Shown here in pieces: positions 4,648-37,250 of a DNA stretch of 64,000 nt (position 1 is its first letter; every line of letters begins with the position of its first letter). The stretch lies in NCBI RefSeq assembly GCF_046105845.1, contig NZ_CP151004.1; one strand, given 5' to 3'. The position numbers and the translations under genes were made by a program. Source of the stretch: Escherichia coli (GTDB lineage Bacteria; Pseudomonadota; Gammaproteobacteria; Enterobacterales; Enterobacteriaceae). Under the pieces are notes generated by a model. The model was not told the origin of the DNA. It made no database searches and saw only the letters and a list, made by a program, of their open reading frames with translations.

Positions 4648-7449
4648 TTATTCGACGTTCAGCGCGTCATTAACCAGATCTTGTTGCTGTTTCTGGTGAA
4701 CGGACATATACCCTACCGCCGGAGAGGCGGAGGCCGGGCGGCCTGCATAACGCAGAGAAGCCCCAAACGGAATCACTTCACGGAAATGATGCTGGCTGCA
4801 GTACCATGCGCCCTGGTTGAGCGGCTCTTCCTGGCACCAGACAAAATCCTTGACGTGAGCAAACTGCTGCAACACTTCCTGCATCGCTTTATGCGGGAAC
4901 GGGTAGAGTTGCTCGATACGCACAATGGCGACATCGTGTTGATTGTTCTTACGACGTTGTTCCAGCAGGTCGTAATAAACCTTACCAGAACACATCACTA
5001 CACGCTTAACGCCCTTCGGATCAAGCTCGTCGATTTCACCGATGGCTGGCAGGAAGGTGCCGTTCGCCAGTTCTTCGAGGCTGGAAACCGCCAGCGGATG
5101 ACGCAGCAGGGATTTCGGCGACATCACGACCAGCGGACGACGCATCCCGCGCAGCGCCTGACGACGCAGCATGTGGTAAACCTGTGCCGGGGTAGACGGT
5201 ACGCACACCTGCATGTTTTGCTCAGCGCAAAGTTGCAGATAACGTTCCAGACGCGCGGAGGAGTGCTCCGGCCCCTGCCCTTCGTAACCGTGCGGCAGCA
5301 ACATCACCAGACCACACATCCGGCCCCATTTCTGTTCGCCAGAGGAGATGAACTGGTCGATAACCACCTGAGCACCGTTAGCGAAGTCACCGAACTGTGC
5401 TTCCCAGATAGTCAGAGTGCGTGGTTCTGCGGTGGCATAACCGTATTCAAACGCCAGCACGGCTTCTTCTGACAGTACGGAGTCCCAGACACGAAACGCG
5501 CCCTGACCGTTATGGATGTGTTGCAGCGGCGTGTAAGTGGAACCGTTAGACTGGTTGTGGATCACCGCGTGGCGGTGGAAGAAGGTACCGCGACCGGAGT
5601 CTTCACCCGACAGGCGAACCGGAATGCCTTCGTCAACCAGCGTGGCGTAAGCGAGGTTTTCCGCGCCGCCCCAGTCGAACAGTTTCTCACCAGCTGCCAT
5701 CGCCTGGCGATCGCCATAAATCTTGGCAACGCGAGACTGCATTTCAACTGCTTCCGGCACCGTGCTGATGCGTTTAGCCAGTTCCTGCAGGCGCTTCATC
5801 TCAACTTTGTTCGGGTACTCTTCGTCCCATTCGTGGTTGAGGTACGGCGACCAGGTGAAAGAGTGCATGTTCATCGGACGCCACTCTGCCACTACGCAAT
5901 CGCCAGCATCCAGCGCATCGCGGTACAGGTTAACCATCTCGGTGGCATCTTCGAGCGTCGCCACTTTTTCTTGCTCCAGCTTGTCAGCGTAGATTTTGCG
6001 CGGCGTCGGATGTTTTTTGATTTTCTGATACATCAGCGGCTGAGTTGCGCTCGGCTCGTCGGCTTCGTTATGGCCATGACGGCGGTAGCACACCAGGTCG
6101 ATGAAGACATCACGTTTAAAGGTGTTACGGAAATCGAGCGCCAGACGGGTCACAAAGGCAACGGCTTCCGGATCATCCGCGTTAACGTGGAAAATCGGTG
6201 CCTGAACCATCTTACCGATATCAGTACAGTACGGCGTCGAACGGGCATCCAGCGGGTTAGAGGTGGTGAAGCCAACCTGGTTGTTGATAACGATACGTAC
6301 CGTACCGCCAACTTCATAACCACGCGCTTTCGACATGTTCAGGGTTTCCTGAACCACGCCCTGCCCGGTCACTGCGGCGTCACCATGAATGGTGATTGGC
6401 AGCACTTTGTTGCTGCTCGGCTCATCAAGTCTGTCCAGACGGGCACGAACAGAACCGATAACGACCGGGCTTACAATCTCAAGGTGAGACGGGTTAAACG
6501 CCAGCGCCAGGTGCACCAGGCCGCCATCGGTCTGGAAGTCAGACGAGAAGCCCATGTGGTATTTCACGTCGCCCGTGCCGAGGTGTTCTTTATGTTTACC
6601 GGCAAACTCGTCGAACAAGTCTTGCGGTTTTTTACCCAGCACGTTCACCAGCACGTTCAGACGGCCACGGTGCGCCATCCCGAGAACCACTTCGCGGGTG
6701 CCGCTGTTGCCAGCGTGGCGGATCATCTCTTTAAGCATCGGGATTAACGCGTCACCGCCTTCCAGCGAGAAGCGTTTTGCGCCAGGGAATTTTGCGCCGA
6801 GGTAACGTTCAAGGCCTTCAGCGGCGGTCAGTTCGCTTAAGAAGCGTTTTTTCTCTTCGCTATTGAAAGTCGCGCGACCAGACTCGATACGCTGTTGGAT
6901 CCAGCGTTTTTCTTCGGTGCTGGTAATATGCATATACTCGGCACCAATCGGGCCGCAGTAGGTTTGCTTGAGGGCTTCCAGCAGCTCGCCGAGTTTCATG
7001 GTTTCTTTGCCGCTGGCAAATGAACCGACGTTGAAGGTCTCCTGGAAGTCTGCTTCGGTCAGATCGTGGAAAGACGGATCCAGATCGGCCACTTTATCTT
7101 GCTGCCACAGTCCCAGCGGATCGAGATTCGCATGCTGGTGACCACGGAAGCGGTATGCGTTAATGAGCTGCAGGACTTTAACCTGCTTCACATTGGTGTC
7201 AGGGTCGGAGATCGTTGAAGAGTAACGTGAAGCGTCTTTCGCCAGGCGGCGGAAATATTCACGCGTTTGAGAGTGGAATTGATCCGGTTTGACTCCCGTA
7301 CCAGGTAACTGCTGGAACGTCGAACGCCAGTTAGCGTCAACCGAGTCAGGATCGGTTAAGAAGTCTTCATAGAGCTGTTCTATCCAGCTCTGGTTTGCGC
7401 CAGAGAGGTAAGAAGAGTCCAACCAGGCTTTCAAAGCGCTGTTCTGCAT
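4648..7449 (-). CDS. sucA: 2-oxoglutarate dehydrogenase E1 component
   Basis: 933-aa [41 protein letters not shown]...; ThDP-dependent E1. Confidence 0.97.
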
Positions 7450-7616
7450 CGTGATCCCTTAAGCATCTTTTTTATGCTTACTTCGCCGTGGATACTACCA
7501 CGCACAGTGATGTGCGTGCCGGGGTTCACTTGCGAGCTCTTGTCTACGTAGTGGCTCGCGAAGGAACCTTTAAAAACTGTCTTAGTGTCAGGGGCAGTTT
7601 TTAAAGATTTCCTGAA

Positions 7617-7640
7617 TAGCCGGGGGATTTCCCCGGCATC
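7617..7640. terminator. Hairpin at the sdhB 3' end (possible partial terminator or attenuator between the sdh and suc transcripts)
   Basis: GCCGGGGgatttCCCCGGC inverted repeat at 7619-7637 immediately after the sdhB stop; only a weak U-run follows on the minus strand. Confidence 0.4.
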
Positions 7641-7649
7641 AACATTTAA

Positions 7650-8366
7650 TTACGCATTACGTTGCAACAACATCGACTTGATATGGCCGATGGCGCGCGT
7701 CGGGTTCAGCCCCTTCGGACATACACTGACGCAGTTCATGATGCTGTGACAGCGGAATACACTGAATGCATCGCTCAAACCGTCGAGGCGGCTGTCAGTC
7801 TCGGTATCACGGCTATCGATCAGGAAACGATATGCCGCTAACAAGCCTGCCGGGCCGATAAACTTATCGGGATTCCACCAGAAAGACGGACAAGAGGTTG
7901 AACAACATGCGCAGAGAATACATTCATACAGCCCGTCGAGTTTTTCGCGCTGCTCTGGCATCTGTAAATGCTCGCGAGCTGGCGGATTTTGTCCATTATT
8001 CAACAGGTAAGGCTTAATTTTCTCATATTGCGCATAGAATTGTCCCATGTCTACCACCAAATCGCGGATCACCGGTAAACCTGGCAGCGGGCGAATCACA
8101 ATCTTCTTGCCCGGCTGGTTGAGTGCCGAAATCGGGGTAATACAGGCCAGACCATTCTTGCCGTTCATGTTCAGACCGTCGGAACCGCACACACCTTCAC
8201 GGCAGGAGCGACGGAACGACAGGCTGGGATCTTTCTCTTTCAGCTGGATAAGCGCATCCAGCAGCATCATGTCACGACCTTCTTCCGCTTCCAGGGTGTA
8301 ATCCTGCATACGCGGAGCATCATCAACATCCGGGTTATAGCGATAAATTGAAAACTCGAGTCTCAT
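7650..8366 (-). CDS. sdhB: Succinate dehydrogenase iron-sulfur subunit
   Basis: 238-aa ORF MRLEFSIYRYNPDVDDAPRMQDYTLEAEEGRDMMLLDALIQLKEKDPSLSFRRSCREGVCGSDG...; Cys clusters for the 2Fe-2S, 4Fe-4S and 3Fe-4S centres. Confidence 0.97.
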   Translation of the reverse strand: MRLEFSIYRYNPDVDDAPRMQDYTLEAEEGRDMMLLDALIQLKEKDPSLSFRRSCREGVCGSDGLNMNGKNGLACITPISALNQPGKKIVIRPLPGLPVIRDLVVDMGQFYAQYEKIKPYLLNNGQNPPAREHLQMPEQREKLDGLYECILCACCSTSCPSFWWNPDKFIGPAGLLAAYRFLIDSRDTETDSRLDGLSDAFSVFRCHSIMNCVSVCPKGLNPTRAIGHIKSMLLQRNA

Positions 8367-13876: not shown

Positions 13877-16336
13877 ATGGACACCGTGAATATTTATCGA
13901 CTCTCTTTTATATCCTGCCTGGTCATGGCGATACCTTCCGCATTGGCGGTCGAATTCAACCTGAATGTCCTCGATAAATCGATGCGAGATCGCATTGATA
14001 TTTCATTATTAAAGGAAAAAGGGGGCATTGCTCCCGGTGAATATTTTGTTAGCGTTGCAGTAAATAACAACCAAATCAGTAACGGACAAAAAATTGACTG
14101 GAAAAAGAACGGTGACCAAACCATTCCGTGTATTAATGATTTACTGGTAGATAAATTTGGTTTAAAACCTGAAGTTCGTCAGTCGTTACCACGGTTAAAC
14201 CAGTGCGTCGATTTTAGCTCCCGGCCTGAAATTCTCTTCATTTTTGATCAGGCTAGCCAGCAACTGAATATCACTATTCCACAAGCCTGGCTGGCGTGGC
14301 ACTCAGATAACTGGACTCCCCCCTCAACATGGAAAGAAGGTGTCGCCGGCGTCCTGATGGATTACAACCTGTTTGCAAGCAGCTACCGCCCACAGGATGG
14401 TAGCAACAGCACTAACCTGAACGCCTATGGAACAGCCGGAATTAACGCCGGGGCATGGCGCTTACGCAGTGATTACCAGCTTAATAAGACCGATAGCGAA
14501 GATAACCATGACCAGTCAGGCGGAATATCGCGCACCTATCTTTTTCGTCCATTACCGCAATTAGGCTCTAAGTTAACCCTCGGCGAAACCGATTTCAGTT
14601 CCAATATTTTCGACGGCTTTTCTTATACCGGCGCGGCACTGGCAAGTGACGATCGGATGTTACCGTGGGAGCTACGCGGCTACGCCCCACAAATCAGCGG
14701 CATTGCACAAACCAACGCCACCGTCACCGTGAGTCACTCAGGGCGAGTTATTTACCAGAAAAAAGTCCCACCAGGTCCGTTTATCATTGATGACCTTAAT
14801 CAGTCCGTCCAGGGTACGTTGGATGTCAAAGTGACGGAAGAAGATGGTCGGGTGAACAATTTCCAGGTTTCGGCAGCATCGACGCCCTTCCTGACTCGCC
14901 AGGGACAGGTTCGCTATAAATTGGCCGCGGGTCAGCCACGGCCCTCCATGTCACATCAAACTGAAAATGAAACCTTTTTTAGCAATGAAGTTTCCTGGGG
15001 GATGCTGTCAAATACCTCGCTGTACGGCGGCCTGCTGATTTCGGGTGACGACTACCATTCTGCCGCAATGGGTATCGGGCAAAATATGCTCTGGCTTGGT
15101 GCATTGTCGTTTGATGTCACCTGGGCCAGTAGTCAGTTTGATACTCAGCAGGACGAGCGGGGCTTAAGTTACCGCTTTAATTACAGCAAACAAGTGGATG
15201 CCACTAACAGCACGATTTCGCTCGCCGCTTATCGCTTTTCAGATCGTCATTTTCACAGCTACGCCAACTATCTGGATCACAAATACAACGACAACGATGC
15301 GCAGGACGAAAAACAGACGATCAGCTTATCCGTGGGGCAACCGATTACCCCACTGAACCTCAATCTGTACGCCAACCTGCTGCATCAAACCTGGTGGAAT
15401 GCAGACGCCTCCACGACCGCCAACATCACGGCGGGTTTTAATGTTGATATTGGTAACTGGAGAGATATCTCGATCTCGACGTCATTCAATACAACCCATT
15501 ACGAAGATAAAGATCGCGACAATCAGATTTACCTGTCGATTTCGCTTCCCTTCGGTAACGGGGGGCGGGTCGGTTATGACATGCAAAACAGTAGTCAAAG
15601 CACCACGCACCGCATGTCGTGGAATGATACGTTGGATGAACGTAATAGCTGGGGCATGTCTACCGGACTGCAATCCGACCGTCCGGATAATGGAGCCCAG
15701 GTGAGCGGTAACTATCAGCACCTGAGTTCAGCGGGTGAGTGGGATATTTCTGGTACCTATGCCGCCAATGATTACAGTTCCGTCAGCAGCAGCTGGAGCG
15801 GTTCTTTCACGGCAACTCAATATGGTGCGGCGTTCCATCGTCGCAGCTCCACCAATGAACCACGTCTGATGGTCAGTACCGATGGCGTGGCAGATATTCC
15901 GGTTCAGGGCCATCTCGACTACACCAACCATTTTGGCATTGCGGTGGTGCCGTTGATTTCCAGTTATCAGCCTTCCACCGTGGCGGTGAACATGAATGAC
16001 TTACCCAACGGCGTAACAGTGGCAGAAAACGTTATCAAAGAAACGTGGATTGAAGGCGCGATAGGTTACAAATCACTGGCTTCCCGTTCCGGTAAAGACG
16101 TTAACGTCATCATTCGCAACGCCAGCGGTCAGTTCCCTCCCCTCGGTGCGGATATCCGCCAGGATGATAGCAGCATTAGCGTGGGGATGGTTGGCGAGGA
16201 AGGACACGCCTGGTTAAGTGGAGTCTCTGAAAATCAACAATTTACCGTGGTCTGGGGTGATAGCCAGCGTTGCTCGATCCATCTTCCTGAACATATGGAA
16301 GACACCGCAAATCGCCTGATTTTACCTTGTCATTAA
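13877..16336 (+). CDS. ybgQ: Fimbrial outer-membrane usher protein
   Basis: Large ORF (track: 13835..16336, 833 aa) with an usher-like N-terminal signal peptide MDTVNIYRLSFISCLVMAIPSALA. The exact start is uncertain (TTG 13835, ATG 13877 or GTG 13886). Confidence 0.88.
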   Translation: MDTVNIYRLSFISCLVMAIPSALAVEFNLNVLDKSMRDRIDISLLKEKGGIAPGEYFVSVAVNNNQISNGQKIDWKKNGDQTIPCINDLLVDKFGLKPEVRQSLPRLNQCVDFSSRPEILFIFDQASQQLNITIPQAWLAWHSDNWTPPSTWKEGVAGVLMDYNLFASSYRPQDGSNSTNLNAYGTAGINAGAWRLRSDYQLNKTDSEDNHDQSGGISRTYLFRPLPQLGSKLTLGETDFSSNIFDGFSYTGAALASDDRMLPWELRGYAPQISGIAQTNATVTVSHSGRVIYQKKVPPGPFIIDDLNQSVQGTLDVKVTEEDGRVNNFQVSAASTPFLTRQGQVRYKLAAGQPRPSMSHQTENETFFSNEVSWGMLSNTSLYGGLLISGDDYHSAAMGIGQNMLWLGALSFDVTWASSQFDTQQDERGLSYRFNYSKQVDATNSTISLAAYRFSDRHFHSYANYLDHKYNDNDAQDEKQTISLSVGQPITPLNLNLYANLLHQTWWNADASTTANITAGFNVDIGNWRDISISTSFNTTHYEDKDRDNQIYLSISLPFGNGGRVGYDMQNSSQSTTHRMSWNDTLDERNSWGMSTGLQSDRPDNGAQVSGNYQHLSSAGEWDISGTYAANDYSSVSSSWSGSFTATQYGAAFHRRSSTNEPRLMVSTDGVADIPVQGHLDYTNHFGIAVVPLISSYQPSTVAVNMNDLPNGVTVAENVIKETWIEGAIGYKSLASRSGKDVNVIIRNASGQFPPLGADIRQDDSSISVGMVGEEGHAWLSGVSENQQFTVVWGDSQRCSIHLPEHMEDTANRLILPCH

Positions 16337-16351
16337 TTAAGGAAATGAAAA

Positions 16352-17083
16352 ATGACATTTATGAAAGGACTTCCCCTTTTGTTGTTGATTGCCAGTCTCT
16401 GCAGCTACGCTGCGCTACAACCCGATCGCACTCGCATTGTGTTTAACGCTAATGATAAAGCCACCAGCCTGCGAGTGGATAATCGTAGCGATAAACTCCC
16501 CTACCTCGCTTATTCCTGGCTCGAAAATGAAAAAGGGGAGAAAAGCGATGATCTTCTGGTTGCCCTGCCACCGATACAACGTCTGGAACCGAAAGCAACA
16601 ACGCAGGTACGGATAGTAAAGCAAGTCTCGACCACAAAATTACCGGGCGATCGCGAAACGCTATTTTTCTACAATATGCGTGAAATTCCTCCCGCCCCGG
16701 AAAAAAATAGCGACCATGCCGTTCTGCAAGTCGCCATTCAGAGTCGTATCAAGGTATTCTGGCGACCGGCTGCATTACGCAAGAAAGCAGGAGAAAAGGT
16801 CGAACTGCAGTTACAGGTCAGCCAGCAGGGCAACCAACTGACACTGAAAAATCCTACCGCGTATTATCTGACCATTGCCTATCTGGGGAGAAATGAAAAA
16901 GGCGTTCTCCCGGGCTTCAAAACCGTGATGGTTGCGCCTTTTAGTACAGTAATTACAAACACCGGAAGTTATAGCGGCAGTCAGTTTTATCTCGGTTATA
17001 TGGATGATTACGGCGCGTTACGCATGACGACGCTCAATTGCAACGGACATTGCCGTTTACAAGCAGTGGAGGCGAAGAAATGA
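16352..17083 (+). CDS. ybgP: Periplasmic fimbrial chaperone (PapD-like)
   Basis: 243-aa [63 protein letters not shown]...; its stop overlaps the ybgO start. Confidence 0.9.
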
Positions 17084-24987: not shown

Positions 24988-24999
24988 CAGGCCAGCACC

Positions 25000-25130
25000 G
25001 ATGCCTGATGCGACGCTTAATGCGTCTTATCAGGCCTGGATTTCCCTGCAATATATTGAATTTGCACTATTTGCCAGGCCGGAGAAGGCGTTCACGCAGT
25101 ATCCGGCATCCGGGCAAGATTGCCTGACGC
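25000..25130. repeat. REP (repetitive extragenic palindrome) cluster between convergent dtpD and phr
   Basis: GCCTGATGCGACGCTTAATGCGTCTTATCAGGCC and a second GCCGGA...TCCGGC unit; typical E. coli REP sequence. Confidence 0.75.
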
Positions 25131-25135
25131 GTCTG

Positions 25136-26554
25136 TTATTTCCCCTTCCTCGCCGCCTCATACGCTGCCAACGTTCGTACTCTCGCTTCTTTGTGATCGA
25201 CAATCGGTTGCGGATAATCCAGCGTCACACCTGATTTATCTGCCCACTTCCACGGCTCATGCACCGCTTTCCCTGGTACATCGCGCAACTCTGGTAGCCA
25301 CCGGCGGATAAACTCGCCTTCGCGGTCAAATTTCTCGCCCTGGGTTGTCGGGTTAAAAATACGAAAATACGGCGCTGCATCGGTTCCGGTTGAAGCGGCC
25401 CACTGCCAGCCACCGTTATTGGCTGCCAAATCACCATCAATCAGCTGCGACACGAAATATCGCTCGCCTTCGCGCCAGTCGATCAATAAATCTTTCACCA
25501 AAAAACTGGCTGTAATCATCCGTAGCCGGTTATGCATCCAGCCAGTGCTGTTAAGCTGACGCATGGCAGCATCAACAATCGGGTATCCCGTTTTACCTTC
25601 TTGCCAGGCTTTAAAATGGGCGGGATTGCGCTGCCACTGCACACGATCCGTCCAGACAATAAACGGACGATGTTTACACAGCGAAGGATAATACGTCATC
25701 AAATGGCGGTAGAACTCGCGCCAGATCAACTCATTAAGCCAGACACTACCGGCCCCATCTTCCAGCGCCTGCGGCTGTTCCGCCAACAGGCGATGTAGAC
25801 ACTGGCGAGGCGATAACCCGCCCGTTGCCAGGCTGGCGGACAAACGGCTGGTACCTTCAACTGCCGGAAAATCTCGTTGTTGCTCATACTCTCCGGCACC
25901 GTTCTGGCAAAACTGGCGTAATTGCGCAATCGCCGCTTTTTCTTCCACCGGGAAATGCGCAGTATCGAAAGGCTGACGAGGATAACTCAGCGTAATGGAT
26001 GGCGCGGGAGCTATCGATCCGCTACTACGTACTTTTGGCGCAGCGACGCACTCCGGCATCCCTTCCCGCAACCGTTTCAGCCAGGCGTTTTTAAATGGCG
26101 TAAAGACTTTGTACATCTCATGATTGCCAGTCATCACCGTCCCCGGCGGCAGGATCACGCTGTCGTCAAATCCTTCACACACCACGTTACGCAGCGTTCT
26201 CTCAACCTGCACATCCCGCGCCCGCTCATTCACCTCATACTGATAGTTATAAAAAAGATGAGTAACGCTGTTTTCCGCGCACACCTGTTTAACTATTTCG
26301 ACGCTGGCGGCAAAGTCATCCACTTCACGGAACAATAAAGGAATGCCTTTTTCCGCCAGCGCGATTTGTAGCCCATTCAGTTGAGCATTGATAAGTTCAG
26401 CCTGACGCGGCGACACATTATGCGCCGCCCACTGGCGTGGGGTAGCGATATACAACGCCAGCACGCGCGCAGACGAATTGCGGCAGGCGGCAGCCAGCGC
26501 GAGATTATCGTGCTGACGTAAATCCTGGCGAAACCAGACCAGATGGGTAGTCAT
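25136..26554 (-). CDS. phr: Deoxyribodipyrimidine photolyase
   Basis: 472-aa ORF MTTHLVWFRQDLRQHDNLALAAACRNSSARVLALYIATPRQWAAH...; FAD-binding C-terminal domain. Confidence 0.96.
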   Translation of the reverse strand: MTTHLVWFRQDLRQHDNLALAAACRNSSARVLALYIATPRQWAAHNVSPRQAELINAQLNGLQIALAEKGIPLLFREVDDFAASVEIVKQVCAENSVTHLFYNYQYEVNERARDVQVERTLRNVVCEGFDDSVILPPGTVMTGNHEMYKVFTPFKNAWLKRLREGMPECVAAPKVRSSGSIAPAPSITLSYPRQPFDTAHFPVEEKAAIAQLRQFCQNGAGEYEQQRDFPAVEGTSRLSASLATGGLSPRQCLHRLLAEQPQALEDGAGSVWLNELIWREFYRHLMTYYPSLCKHRPFIVWTDRVQWQRNPAHFKAWQEGKTGYPIVDAAMRQLNSTGWMHNRLRMITASFLVKDLLIDWREGERYFVSQLIDGDLAANNGGWQWAASTGTDAAPYFRIFNPTTQGEKFDREGEFIRRWLPELRDVPGKAVHEPWKWADKSGVTLDYPQPIVDHKEARVRTLAAYEAARKGK

Positions 26555-27060
26555 AAAACTCCTGCATGGCGCAAGTTAATCACACGCGGCCAAAGTTCGA
26601 AATAACGCTGCCCTGAAAGCCAGGCGTCAGGATAAAGCGCCATATAGTGTTTGATACGCATCAGCGGCGCAAGAAGCGGTTGCTCGCCACGGCGATAACT
26701 GTCGATAAGCGCCGCCAGCTGCTGGCGTTCTGTGGAATCAATATGCGGGCGAAAATACCCCTGAACGTGCATCAAAACGTTGGTGTGATCGCGCGGGTTG
26801 GCGGGATGAGAAAGCAAAACAATTACGCGTTGGCGGTACTGGCTGTAAAAATCATCCAGATTTTGCCACTGATGAATATCAGCCACAAACGGGCCAAGTT
26901 TGCGGTATTCCGGCTGAGAATGAGCCAGAAAGACGAGTTTATAGCGGCTGTGATAATCGAGAAGCGCCCCGCGCGTTAAGCCTCGCTCTTTAAGACGGTA
27001 TAACTCCTGCAAAGCAAAAATGCGAATAAGGGTGCTGTCATCAAATCGTTGTAGATTCAT
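26551..27060 (-). CDS. ybgA: DUF1722-family protein, cotranscribed upstream of phr
   Basis: Start set at MNLQRFDDSTLIRIFALQELYRL (169 aa) with an AGGAG RBS; the track ORF begins at 27129. Its stop overlaps the phr start. Confidence 0.88.
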   Translation of the reverse strand: MNLQRFDDSTLIRIFALQELYRLKERGLTRGALLDYHSRYKLVFLAHSQPEYRKLGPFVADIHQWQNLDDFYSQYRQRVIVLLSHPANPRDHTNVLMHVQGYFRPHIDSTERQQLAALIDSYRRGEQPLLAPLMRIKHYMALYPDAWLSGQRYFELWPRVINLRHAGVL

Positions 27061-27161
27061 TACTGCTCCTGAACGGTTTACAGGAGTAAGTGTAGACGGC
27101 GAAAAGAAAAAAACCGCCAGCGTTTCCACTAGCGGTTTTCAATGTATTCAAAACTCAGCAA

Positions 27162-27368
27162 TCAGTAAAAATCACCAGTTGCCTTTTCGGCCTGATCCAT
27201 CCACACCGGTTTATCGCTGGTTTTCGACCAGACGCGGTGCAGGTAGCTGTAAAAGCGGGCGCGGTCTTTCCAGAAAAGCATGAAAGGCAGCGCCAGAACG
27301 CCCGCTGCAACCGCATAAGTACGGCGTAAAAAGATAAGCCATGCAGGATATTCTCTGTAGAGTTCCAT
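27162..27368 (-). CDS. ybfA: Small inner-membrane protein YbfA (DUF2517)
   Basis: 68-aa [71 protein letters not shown]. Confidence 0.85.
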
Positions 27369-27574
27369 ACTTTTCTCCCCCTTTTGTATCTACCCGGTGA
27401 ATGGCACCGGAAAAATGAATTTGTTTATCTGATGAAAATAGTACCGCCTTTTGTGTAATTTTACTACTCATCCGACCACTTATTTTTGCTTATTGATGGT
27501 TTATTTACATTCACCGTGTAATTAAGTTACATGAAAGTTAAATTAATACTAATCATTAGTTAAATCATGGCTTT

Positions 27575-27605
27575 TGCCATTTTTATACTTTTTTTACACC
27601 CCGCC
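27575..27605 (+). promoter_or_regulatory. KdpE response-regulator binding site in the kdpFABC promoter
   Basis: CATTTTTATACTTTTTTTACACCCCGCCCG about 80 bp upstream of kdpF; matches my recollection of the characterised KdpE operator. Confidence 0.65.
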
Positions 27606-27680
27606 CGCAGATTTTTGCGAAATCTTTGCAGCCAGAATTCTACCCTTCCGGTATCACTTTTAGGCCACTGGAGGTGCACT

Positions 27681-27770
27681 GTGAGTGCAGGCGTGATAGC
27701 CGGCGTGTTGCTGGTGTTTTTATTACTGGGTTATCTGGTTTATGCCCTGATCAATGCGGAGGCGTTCTGA
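27681..27770 (+). CDS. kdpF: K+-transporting ATPase small subunit KdpF (29 aa)
   Basis: GTG start with GGAGG RBS; [29 protein letters not shown]; stop TGA overlaps the kdpA ATG (TGATG). Confidence 0.85.
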
Positions 27771-29443
27771 TGACTGCGCAAGGGTTCTTACTGATCGCCA
27801 CGTTTTTACTGGTGTTAATGGTGCTGGCACGTCCTTTAGGCAGCGGGCTGGCGCGGCTGATTAATGACATACCTCTTCCCGGTACAGCGGGTGTTGAACG
27901 CGTACTCTTTCGTTTACCTGGCGTCTCTGACAGTGAGATGAACTGGAAGCAGTATCTCTGTGCCATTCTCGGCCTGAACATGCTGGGGCTGGCGGTGCTG
28001 TTTTTTATGTTGCTCGGTCAGCACTATCTGCCGCTTAATCCACAGCAGTTGCCAGGGCTGTCATGGGATCTGGCGCTGAATACCGCCGTCAGCTTTGTCA
28101 CTAATACCAACTGGCAATCTTACAGCGGTGAAACCACGTTGAGCTATTTCAGCCAGATGGCTGGCTTAACGGTGCAAAACTTTCTTTCTGCCGCCAGCGG
28201 GATTGCGGTGATTTTTGCCCTCATCCGTGCATTTACCCGCCAGGGCATGAGCACACTCGGGAATGCCTGGGTCGATCTGCTACGCATCACGTTATGGGTG
28301 CTAGTCCCTGTGGCGTTGTTGATCGCACTGTTTTTTATTCAACAAGGTGCATTGCAAAACTTTCTGCCCTATCAGGCGGTGAATACCGTTGAAGGAGCGC
28401 AACAGCTGTTACCCATGGGGCCAGTAGCTTCTCAGGAAGCGATCAAAATGCTCGGTACTAACGGCGGTGGCTTCTTTAATGCCAACTCCTCGCATCCGTT
28501 TGAAAACCCAACCGCACTGACCAACTTCGTGCAAATGCTGGCGATCTTCTTGATCCCAACGGCACTGTGCTTTGCCTTTGGCGAAGTGGCGGGCGATCGC
28601 CGTCAGGGGCGCATGTTGCTGTGGGCGATGTCGGTGATTTTTGTCATCTGCGTAGGCGTGGTGATGTGGGCAGAAGTTCAGGGTAATCCTCATCTGCTGG
28701 CACTGGGCGCGGACAGCAGCATCAATATGGAAGGTAAAGAGAGCCGTTTCGGCGTGCTGGTCAGTAGCCTGTTTGCGGTCGTGACTACGGCGGCTTCCTG
28801 CGGCGCGGTGATTGCGATGCATGATTCGTTTACCGCCCCCGGTGGCATGGTGCCGATGTGGCTGATGCAAATTGGTGAAGTGGTATTCGGCGGTGTCGGT
28901 TCTGGTCTTTACGGCATGATGCTGTTTGTCCTGCTGGCGGTGTTTATTGCCGGGCTGATGATTGGTCGTACACCGGAATATCTGGGTAAAAAAATCGACG
29001 TACGCGAGATGAAACTGACCGCACTGGCGATTCTGGTCACCCCGACGCTGGTGCTGATGGGCGCGGCGCTGGCAATGATGACCGACGCCGGACGTAGCGC
29101 CATGCTCAACCCTGGCCCGCATGGTTTTAGCGAAGTGCTGTACGCCGTGTCATCCGCCGCTAACAACAACGGAAGCGCCTTTGCCGGATTAAGCGCCAAC
29201 TCTCCATTCTGGAACTGTTTACTGGCGTTCTGCATGTTTGTCGGTCGCTTCGGGGTGATTATCCCGGTGATGGCAATTGCCGGTTCGCTGGTGAGTAAAA
29301 AGAGCCAACCCGCCAGCTCCGGCACGCTGCCAACGCACGGCCCGCTGTTTGTTGGCCTGTTAATCGGCACCGTATTGCTGGTTGGCGCACTGACCTTTAT
29401 CCCTGCCCTGGCGCTTGGTCCGGTGGCGGAATATCTCTCCTGA
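27770..29443 (+). CDS. kdpA: K+-transporting ATPase subunit A (K+ channel-like)
   Basis: 557-aa frame [33 protein letters not shown]...; the track ORF begins upstream at 27626. Confidence 0.96.
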
Positions 29444-34772: not shown

Positions 34773-35446
34773 CAAACGTTCTGATTGTTGAAGATGAACA
34801 GGCTATTCGTCGCTTTCTGCGCACGGCGCTGGAGGGCGATGGGATGCGCGTCTTTGAGGCCGAAACGCTGCAACGCGGCTTGCTGGAAGCGGCAACCCGT
34901 AAGCCAGATTTGATTATTCTCGATCTCGGCCTGCCCGATGGTGATGGGATTGAGTTTATCCGCGACCTGCGCCAGTGGAGCGCGGTGCCGGTGATTGTGC
35001 TTTCCGCACGTAGCGAAGAGAGCGACAAAATCGCCGCGCTGGATGCCGGAGCGGATGATTACCTGAGTAAGCCATTTGGTATTGGCGAATTGCAGGCCCG
35101 TCTGCGCGTCGCTTTACGCCGCCACTCCGCCACCACCGCGCCCGATCCGCTGGTGAAATTTTCCGATGTTACCGTCGATTTAGCGGCTCGTGTGATCCAT
35201 CGCGGTGAGGAAGAGGTGCATCTCACACCAATTGAGTTTCGCCTGCTGGCGGTGCTGCTCAACAATGCCGGAAAAGTGCTCACCCAGCGCCAGCTCCTTA
35301 ACCAGGTGTGGGGACCAAACGCGGTCGAACACAGTCATTATTTGCGTATTTATATGGGGCATCTGCGACAAAAACTGGAGCAAGATCCCGCCCGCCCCCG
35401 CCACTTCATTACTGAAACCGGTATTGGGTATCGGTTTATGCTTTAG
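34769..35446 (+). CDS. kdpE: Response regulator KdpE (OmpR family)
   Basis: GTG start overlapping the kdpD stop; 225 aa [31 protein letters not shown]...; receiver plus winged-helix domains. Confidence 0.96.
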   Translation: MTNVLIVEDEQAIRRFLRTALEGDGMRVFEAETLQRGLLEAATRKPDLIILDLGLPDGDGIEFIRDLRQWSAVPVIVLSARSEESDKIAALDAGADDYLSKPFGIGELQARLRVALRRHSATTAPDPLVKFSDVTVDLAARVIHRGEEEVHLTPIEFRLLAVLLNNAGKVLTQRQLLNQVWGPNAVEHSHYLRIYMGHLRQKLEQDPARPRHFITETGIGYRFML

Positions 35447-35455
35447 GCGGTTAAA

Positions 35456-35556
35456 TGCTGGATCCGGCATGAACGCCTTATCCGGCCTACAAAATAGCGC
35501 AAATTCAATATATTGCACCATCTTCCCAGGCCTGATAAGCGTAGCGCATCAGGCAG
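35456..35556. repeat. REP elements between convergent kdpE and pgm
   Basis: ATCCGGCATGAACGCCTTATCCGGCCTAC and CCTGATAAGCGTAGCGCATCAGGC units. Confidence 0.7.
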
Positions 35557-35564
35557 TCATAAGT

Positions 35565-35596
35565 AAAAAAGGGCGATCTTCCGACCGCCCTTTTTC
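35565..35596. terminator. Bidirectional rho-independent terminator (pgm / kdpE)
   Basis: AAAAAAGGGCGatcttccgaCCGCCCTTTTT: a GC hairpin flanked by an A-run and a T-run. Confidence 0.7.
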
Positions 35597-35609
35597 TTAT
35601 TAAATGTGT

Positions 35610-37250
35610 TTACGCGTTTTTCAGAACTTCGCTAACAATCTCAACCGCTTCTTTCTCAATCTGCTTGCGATGTTCTTCCCCGAGGAAGCTTTCGCAATAA
35701 ATCTTGTACGCGTCTTCCGTGCCTGACGGACGCGCGGCGAACCAGCCGTTGTCAGTCATCACTTTCAGACCGCCAATAGAAGCACCGTTGCCCGGAGCAG
35801 CAGTCAGGCGTGCGGTGATCGGGTCACCTGCCAGGGTGCTGGCGCTCACCATTTCCGGAGACAGCTTAGACAGCGCCGCTTTTTGTGCGGAAGTCGCAGC
35901 TGCCTGCAAACGGTTGTAGCTCGGCGCACCAAAGCGTTTTGCCAGTTCGTTGTAGTGTTCCTGCGGGTTCTTACCGGTGACAGCGGTGATTTCCGCCGCC
36001 AGCAGACACATGATGATGCCGTCTTTGTCGGTGGACCACGGCGTGCCGTCGAAACGCAGGAAGGAAGCCCCTGCGCTCTCTTCGCCGCCAAAGCCGAAGC
36101 TGCCGTCGAACAGACCATCAACAAACCATTTGAAACCTACCGGGACTTCTACCAGCTTACGGCCCAAATCATTGACCACACGGTCGATCATCGCAGAAGA
36201 AACCAGCGTTTTACCGACAGCAACATCTTTGCCCCACTGCGGACGATGCTGGAACAGGTAGTTGATCGCCACCGCCAGGTAGTGGTTCGGATTCATCAAA
36301 CCTGCCGGAGTGACGATACCGTGACGGTCATAATCCGGGTCGTTAGCAAACGCCAGATCGAACTTATCACGCAGTGCCAGCAGGCCCGCCATCGCACACT
36401 CGGAGGAGCAGTCCATACGGATCGCGCCGTCTTTATCGAGGTGCATAAAGCGGAAGGTTTGATCGACCTGATCGTTAACGATGGTCAGGTTGAGGTTGTA
36501 ATACTCGCCAATGCGCTTCCAGTATTCGATACCGGAACCACCCAGCGGATCAACGCCCAGCGTCAGGCCCGCTTTCTGAATCGCCGCCATATCAACGATA
36601 TCGGCCAGCCCTTCCACAAACGGCTGCACCAGATCCTGCTCTTTCACATGACCGGATGCCATCGCTTCGTCGAGGGAGATACGCTTCACGCCTTTCAGGC
36701 CATCAGCCATCAGTGCGTTGGCCCTGTCTTCCACCACTTTAGTGACGTTGGTATCAGCCGGGCCACCATTTGGCGGATTGTACTTGATACCACCATCTTC
36801 CGGCGGGTTATGAGACGGTGTGATCACGATACCGTCTGCCAGCGGGCCACCTTTTTTATTGTGAACCAGGATGGCATTGGAAACGGCAGGCGTCGGGGTG
36901 AAGCCATTGTTTTCCTGCACAATGACATCAACGCCATTCGCTGCCAGCACTTCCAGTACGGAAATGAACGCAGGCTCGGACAGGGCGTGAGTATCTTTAC
37001 CCACATAGCAAGGGCCAGTGATGCCGTTTTTCGCACGTTCTTCAGCAATTGCCTGAGCGATCGCCAGAATGTGCGGCTCGTTAAAGCTGTGGCGCGCTGC
37101 ACTGCCACGGTGACCGGAAGTACCGAATTTCACCGCGTGCTCCGCATTCCCTGCTTCTGGTTTCAGTACATAATATTGCGCCGTCAGTTGGGCGACGTTA
37201 ATCAAATCACTCTGTTGTGCAGGTTGGCCTGCACGATTGTGGATTGCCAT
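35610..37250 (-). CDS. pgm: Phosphoglucomutase
   Basis: Start set at [35 protein letters not shown] (546 aa); active-site TSGHRGS. The track ORF runs to 37301. Confidence 0.96.

Follow-up and report, generated by a model that had tools for sequence, protein, structure and literature searches.

A probable unoccupied ancestral allele of the RhsC site between ybfA and ybgA in an Escherichia coli chromosome segment

The window, by which we mean the whole stretch of 64,000 nucleotides analysed here, is an E. coli-type chromosome segment in which ybfA and ybgA are neighbours, without the RhsC element between them. The 101 nucleotides that separate the two genes are very probably the intact ancestral ybfA-ybgA intergenic region, that is, an unoccupied allele of the RhsC site. 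The state of this site varies within E. coli and among other Escherichia species, and the window carries the uninterrupted form. The variable presence of Rhs at ybfA-ybgA among E. coli strains is already known and is an ordinary polymorphism. What is added here is the insertion point at the level of single bases, and a comparison with outgroups whose sequences point to the empty form as the ancestral one.

Surveys of the ECOR collection by C. W. Hill and co-workers have reportedly described both a variable presence of Rhs elements and unoccupied sites in natural E. coli isolates. The state of such isolates is the same as that of the window: the K-12 Rhs element is absent, the flanks are joined, and nothing material differs.

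The junction and its counterpart in K-12

The window is reversed relative to K-12, and its genes are, in order, suc/sdh, gltA, ybgQPO, abrB, nei, pxpABC, ybgI, dtpD, phr, ybgA, ybfA, kdpFABCDE, pgm, seqA, fldA, fur, glnS and nagE. ybfA (27162-27368, minus strand) is an open reading frame of 68 amino acids that matches Pfam DUF2517 (E = 3e-34), and its DNA is 99% identical to that of K-12 ybfA. ybgA (26551-27060, minus strand; 169 amino acids, DUF1722, E = 5e-35) has 94.3% DNA identity to its K-12 counterpart along its full length and 89% in the first 150 nucleotides. Its stop codon overlaps the start of its 3' partner phr, the gene for deoxyribodipyrimidine photolyase (25136-26554, minus strand), an open reading frame with the Pfam domains DNA_photolyase and FAD_binding_7. 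The flanks are oriented as in K-12, with kdpA and kdpF beyond ybfA and phr and dtpD beyond ybgA.

On the minus strand, the TGA stop of ybfA lies at 27162-27164 and the ATG start of ybgA at 27058-27060, so the intergenic stretch is 27061-27161, 101 nucleotides long. The RefSeq annotation of a genome that is 99.7% identical over window positions 26400-27700 has identical genes and the same 101-nucleotide gap. The distance of 101 bp given in a preliminary description of this DNA is therefore borne out by both the reading frames and the annotation. As this is a matter of gene order, there is no expectation by chance to set against it.

In MG1655 the order is ybfA, rhsC, ybfB, ybfO, ybfC, ybfQ, ybfL, ybfD, ybgA, phr. 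The preliminary description was right that the RhsC element and its associated genes separate ybfA from ybgA-phr in K-12; the contrary arrangement, with ybfA of K-12 directly adjoining ybgA, was checked for and not found. The K-12 element thus occupies the same chromosomal site, between the same flanking genes, as the junction in the window. This site is the rhs 'position 5', between kdpA and phr, of Jackson et al. 2009 (PMC2935791), who also give a table of presence and absence. The locus is covered as region b0699-b0706 by Archer et al. 2011 (PMC3032704). Both papers document that Rhs elements, including the one at this site, are present in some E. coli strains and absent from others.

A BLAST comparison of the window with K-12 gives two collinear blocks: one with kdp and ybfA, which extends to 27108 at 98.5% identity, and one with ybgA and phr, which starts at 27098 at 94.7%. 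Between the two blocks there are 9,568 bp in K-12, against 9 unaligned nucleotides in the window. The claimed absence of the RhsC element is confirmed by this alignment, from which the whole 9,568-bp block is missing on the window's side. In comparison with K-12 the window is without the rhs core, the tip and immunity genes and the ISAs1-family H-repeat genes, and has 8 nucleotides in place of the 9,568 bp.

The K-12 block sits between the T-run of a predicted terminator (27107-27113) and a box, CGTCTACAC, that starts from 27098, and it replaces the octanucleotide CTTTTCGC (27099-27106). Base by base, K-12 reads GGCGGTTTTTT up to the left boundary, GTATCAGG at the start of the island, CATTTCTCAA at its end, and CGTCTACAC directly after the right boundary, while the window reads GGCGGTTTTTTT-CTTTTCGC-CGTCTACAC. 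From this reading, the point at which RhsC-type islands are inserted in other strains is the 8-nucleotide spacer CTTTTCGC (27099-27106, minus strand), directly after the T-run of the hairpin. The preliminary description had taken the 101-bp gap as the exact junction. The junction is real, but the insertion point is narrower, 8-9 nucleotides at 27099-27107, and this is the exact coordinate obtained here. The K-12 junctions (left, TTTTTT followed by GTATCAGG; right, CATTTCTCAA followed by CGTCTACAC) show neither a target-site duplication nor terminal repeats, either of which would suggest transposition.

Remnants of Rhs flanks were searched for in the 101-bp junction and none was found: with blastn-short against the 9,568-bp element, the 101 nucleotides gave only chance matches of 9-14 nucleotides, with E-values of at least 0.67. 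Over the whole 64 kb, neither blastn with the RhsC element nor tblastn with Rhs, YbfB, YbfC and YbfD proteins returned anything significant. When the K-12 RhsC protein (1,397 amino acids) was compared with the window by tblastn, the best match was 14 amino acids long (E = 2.4), so no rhs core reading frame is found there.

The 101 nucleotides are structured (folding energy -33.2 kcal/mol, z = -3.9 against shuffled sequences). Just 3' of the ybfA stop there is a GC-rich stem-loop with a T-run, predicted from the sequence to be the intrinsic terminator of ybfA (27107-27140, minus strand). In the terminator scan it begins 21 nucleotides past the stop and has 14 pairs (6 of them G-C), a loop of 4 nucleotides and seven T; the stem-loop covers 27140-27109 and leads into the T-run at 27113-27107. 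The stem differs from that of K-12 at two positions, both C-to-T changes that keep G-U pairing.

On the ybgA side of the 8-nucleotide spacer lies the box CGTCTACACTTA (27087-27098, minus strand), whose first bases are the first ones common to empty and occupied alleles. In every Escherichia allele it is identical or nearly so, and it can still be recognised in Citrobacter, Klebsiella and Trabulsiella. The box is a putative promoter element of ybgA-phr; a scan of 26800-27700, which includes the spacer, returned no consensus sigma-70 promoter. Further towards ybgA there is a small hairpin of 6 bp, CTCCTG-N9-CAGGAG (27066-27086, minus strand), whose 3' arm contains the Shine-Dalgarno sequence AGGAG of ybgA. 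This hairpin appears in both the minimum-free-energy and the centroid fold, and its sequence is conserved across the Escherichia alleles. The earlier statement that only a hairpin lies between the genes is thus right about the hairpin, the predicted ybfA terminator, but incomplete, as the spacer also holds this second one over the ybgA ribosome-binding site. A scan of 26000-28000 against Rfam gave only a chance-level match to mir-498 (E = 0.44, with a score well under the gathering threshold), and no match inside the spacer.

The site in E. coli, other Escherichia and other genera

Among 5,426 complete E. coli genomes, the contiguous ybfA-ybgA junction is found in about 1,310 (24%, a count that takes in a few IS-disrupted variants) and a K-12-type junction from ybfA to rhs in 3,692 (68%). 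A third class, with a 1.7-kb orphan-immunity island at the same point, accounts for 171 genomes (3%); the three classes together cover about 95% of the genomes. The rhs island itself measures 9.6 kb in K-12 and about 5 kb where the ISAs1-family H-repeat genes are missing.

To describe the right ends of the occupied alleles, we read six RhsC-type alleles out of about 3,700 occupied genomes: K-12, O157:H7, M11, CFSAN061768, EC21Z-147 and WP4-S18-ESBL-07, the last of which lacks H-repeat genes. Each of them ends in a conserved stretch of about 20 nucleotides, CACAAAxxTCATTTxxCAx, that directly abuts CGTCTACAC without a spacer. CTTTTCGC is absent from the left junction of K-12 as well. Since the spacer is missing from all six right ends, excision of such an island cannot recreate CTTTTCGC, and the junction in the window is not derivable by excision from these six right junctions or from the left junction of K-12.

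The short island, as in strain SY019 (14662-16410 of the extracted locus L007), starts after the same ybfA terminator T-run and is followed by the same CGTCTACAC box. Its nucleotide sequence does not resemble that of the K-12 element. An ERIC-like repeat can be recognised in it by eye, and it has three small genes, of which one matches Pfam CdiI_3 (E = 4e-17) and another, weakly, SUKH-1. At its right end a T-run and a spacer, CAATACTGC, are kept; of the island itself the window has nothing. In strain DETEC-S586 (locus L005) most of the short island and the first codons of ybgA have been deleted by an IS1, which leaves 61 nucleotides of island sequence and the IS1 itself.

The empty junction with its spacer recurs, in slightly varying form, in the other four empty alleles of E. 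coli that we aligned and in two divergent Escherichia lineages. One of the four is that of the uropathogenic strain NU14, in which the 19 nucleotides after the ybfA stop are quite different. The two divergent lineages are about 93% identical to the window, and their spacers are GTTTTCGC and ATGTACGC; these have diverged in proportion to the remaining sequence.

Occupied alleles are also present outside E. coli. The same 142-nucleotide left end is found in E. albertii, which has a full RhsC homolog, in E. whittamii and in Escherichia sp. MOD1-EC7003. In the latter two (6263-8007 of locus L008 and 6262-7632 of locus L010, respectively) the ybfA terminator is followed by the first ~142 nucleotides of the K-12 RhsC element, after which the sequences diverge: that of E. 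whittamii is GC-rich with broken reading frames, and that of MOD1-EC7003 has AT-rich small reading frames and then H-repeat fragments. None of the reading frames tested from these two islands matched Pfam, and the idea that the first one in E. whittamii is VgrG-like was dropped for this reason.

A scan with one genome per species kept 80 loci that encode YbfA, 74 of them outside Escherichia; E. fergusonii is not among the 80. In none of the 74 was an RhsC homolog found within about 6 kb downstream of ybfA, and in most of them ybgA or phr follows ybfA directly. The spacers of five Citrobacter, one Klebsiella and two Trabulsiella loci were aligned, and their elements come in the same order as in the window: terminator hairpin, T-run, a spacer of 8-11 nucleotides, the GTCTACACTTA box, AAGGAG and ATG. 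The hairpin and T-run of the ybfA terminator are thus present in all three genera. As an example, C. youngae reads GGCGGTTTTTTT-ATACGTCGC-AGTCTACACTTA where the window reads GGCGGTTTTTTT-CTTTTCGC-CGTCTACACTTA. The window is in this way collinear with relatives that lack the element, namely these three genera and the two divergent Escherichia lineages. Because the spacers of Citrobacter, Klebsiella and Trabulsiella align with that of the window, the junction in the window is read as the ancestral intergenic region.

Variation in the neighbouring genes

Several other differences between strains were observed close to the site. The spacer between the convergent genes dtpD and phr (24988-25135) is 148 nucleotides long, compared with 149 in K-12 and only 41 in Z1323HEC0462 and SY019, which suggests a small insertion or deletion, possibly of a repeat element.

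On the kdp side, the window lacks a second K-12 block at 35445-35610, between the stop codons of kdpE and pgm. In K-12 about 5.7 kb lie here (ybfP, ybfG, ybfI, potE, speF and speFL), and in the window about 160 nucleotides of REP-like sequence. So short a distance between kdpE and pgm is found in at most 353 of the 5,426 complete E. coli genomes, and some of these, e.g. Z1323HEC0462, keep ybfP. The K-12 pseudogene ybfI (6724-6865 of locus L088) is an 88.7%-identical copy of the last 142 nucleotides of kdpE (35303-35444 in the window), so the speF-potE block of K-12 is bounded by a partial duplication of the 3' end of kdpE.

The phr allele is rare: none of 5,422 complete E. coli genomes exceeds 96.5% identity to its 3' three-quarters (25136-26200), and the majority lie at 90-95%. 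Over 25 kb (20000-44999) no complete E. coli genome is more than 98.1% identical to the window. From these low best identities it follows that the source lineage is not closely represented among finished E. coli genomes.

The first 150 nucleotides of ybgA (26911-27060) are only 83-97% identical in pairs of E. coli strains, at the low end as between Escherichia species, and ybfA in the same strains is 97-99.5% identical. Relaxed constraint, old haplotypes beside an indel, or selection are all possible causes. We tested whether the haplotype of the ybgA flank tracks the state of the site through long-term linkage, but there is no clean tracking, as PapRG-04-4 is empty but K-12-like.

Origin of the empty allele

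The preliminary description had left two readings open, an unoccupied Rhs site or a clean deletion. Collinearity with the outgroups and the retained 8-nucleotide spacer favour the unoccupied site. The absence of the spacer from all six RhsC-type alleles that were read likewise indicates that the window carries the ancestral, uninterrupted allele and not a fresh deletion. This intergenic region is made up of the predicted rho-independent terminator of ybfA, the 8-nucleotide spacer, the conserved box and the ribosome-binding site of ybgA. Where the site is occupied, an rhs toxin island lies between the terminator T-run and CGTCTACAC, and the 8-nucleotide spacer is missing. The lineage of the window would owe the empty form either to vertical descent or to homologous recombination in the genes on either side.

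Some observations speak against this account. Jackson et al. 2009 (PMC2935791) infer that the ancestral E. coli was occupied at position 5, as E. albertii has rhs there; E. coli strains without rhs at this position are then losses. Occupation with the same 142-nucleotide left end is indeed confirmed in the three other Escherichia described above. Further, of the ten complete genomes listed as nearest to the window across 25 kb (98.1% identity), nine carry an annotated RHS core protein in the matching stretch, and in WP4-S18-ESBL-07, the near relative that was read, the site is occupied. As the nearest genomes are nearly all occupied, the window lineage's own ancestors may have been occupied too. 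Finally, the short-island class keeps both T-run and spacer, and a microhomology deletion there could in principle look clean; against this, the spacer of that class is CAATACTGC and not CTTTTCGC.

The excision of an RhsC-type island from this very chromosome is nevertheless very improbable. Deletions do occur at the locus, as the IS1-mediated one in DETEC-S586 demonstrates, but that deletion left scars (the 61 nucleotides of island, the IS1 and a truncated ybgA), and the window is free of scars. A fresh excision would also have to account for the 8-nucleotide spacer that the six RhsC-type alleles lack, and for a junction that matches those of other genera. Even less credible, to the point that we give it almost no weight, is an assembly artefact in which a repeated Rhs element was collapsed or dropped. 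Multi-copy Rhs cores often break draft assemblies, and the MOD1-EC7003 contig ends inside its island; a collapse would not yield the ancestral spacer, however, and about 1,310 complete genomes have the same contiguous junction.

A more serious possibility, to which we give roughly one chance in three, is that the ancestors of the window were occupied and later took up the empty allele of an empty-site strain through homologous recombination in ybfA/kdp and ybgA/phr. This possibility agrees with the preferred reading of an unoccupied ancestral allele and overlaps with it: the sequence would still be of the ancestral type, and the loss of RhsC would be secondary for the lineage. The flanks are mosaic, with 97-100% identity to K-12 on the ybfA/kdp side and only 91-95% on the side of ybgA, phr and dtpD. 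PapRG-04-4, although its site is empty, resembles K-12 at the 5' end of ybgA (96.7% in the first 150 nucleotides), and the state of the site and the flanking haplotype are therefore uncoupled. The near-complete occupation among the nearest genomes listed and the occupation of position 5 before E. coli arose, as proposed by Jackson et al. 2009 (PMC2935791), fit such a replacement as well. On the other hand, the nearest complete genome, at 98.1% over 25 kb, is too distant for the recent history of the lineage to be read from it.

Empty and occupied alleles are both spread across Escherichia, so both classes either predate E. coli or have moved between species. It is conceivable, though we consider it rather unlikely, that the two are older than E. 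coli and make up a trans-species polymorphism of the genus, either maintained over time or exchanged. This idea builds on the empty alleles with the ancestral spacer in E. coli and the two divergent Escherichia lineages, and on the occupied ones with the same 142-nucleotide left end in four Escherichia taxa. If true, it would revise the published view in which the ancestral E. coli was simply occupied and the empty strains are losses.

In occupied alleles the island takes the place of all sequence upstream of the CGTCTACACTTA box, and for this reason the allele classes might drive the expression of ybgA-phr, and with it the photolyase, differently. Whether Rhs elements are present or absent has long been known as a marker of population structure in E. 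coli, and in this respect the finding matters little beyond bookkeeping. For the strain from which the window comes, it means that the RhsC toxin and immunity cassette is missing, which may affect its competitive repertoire.
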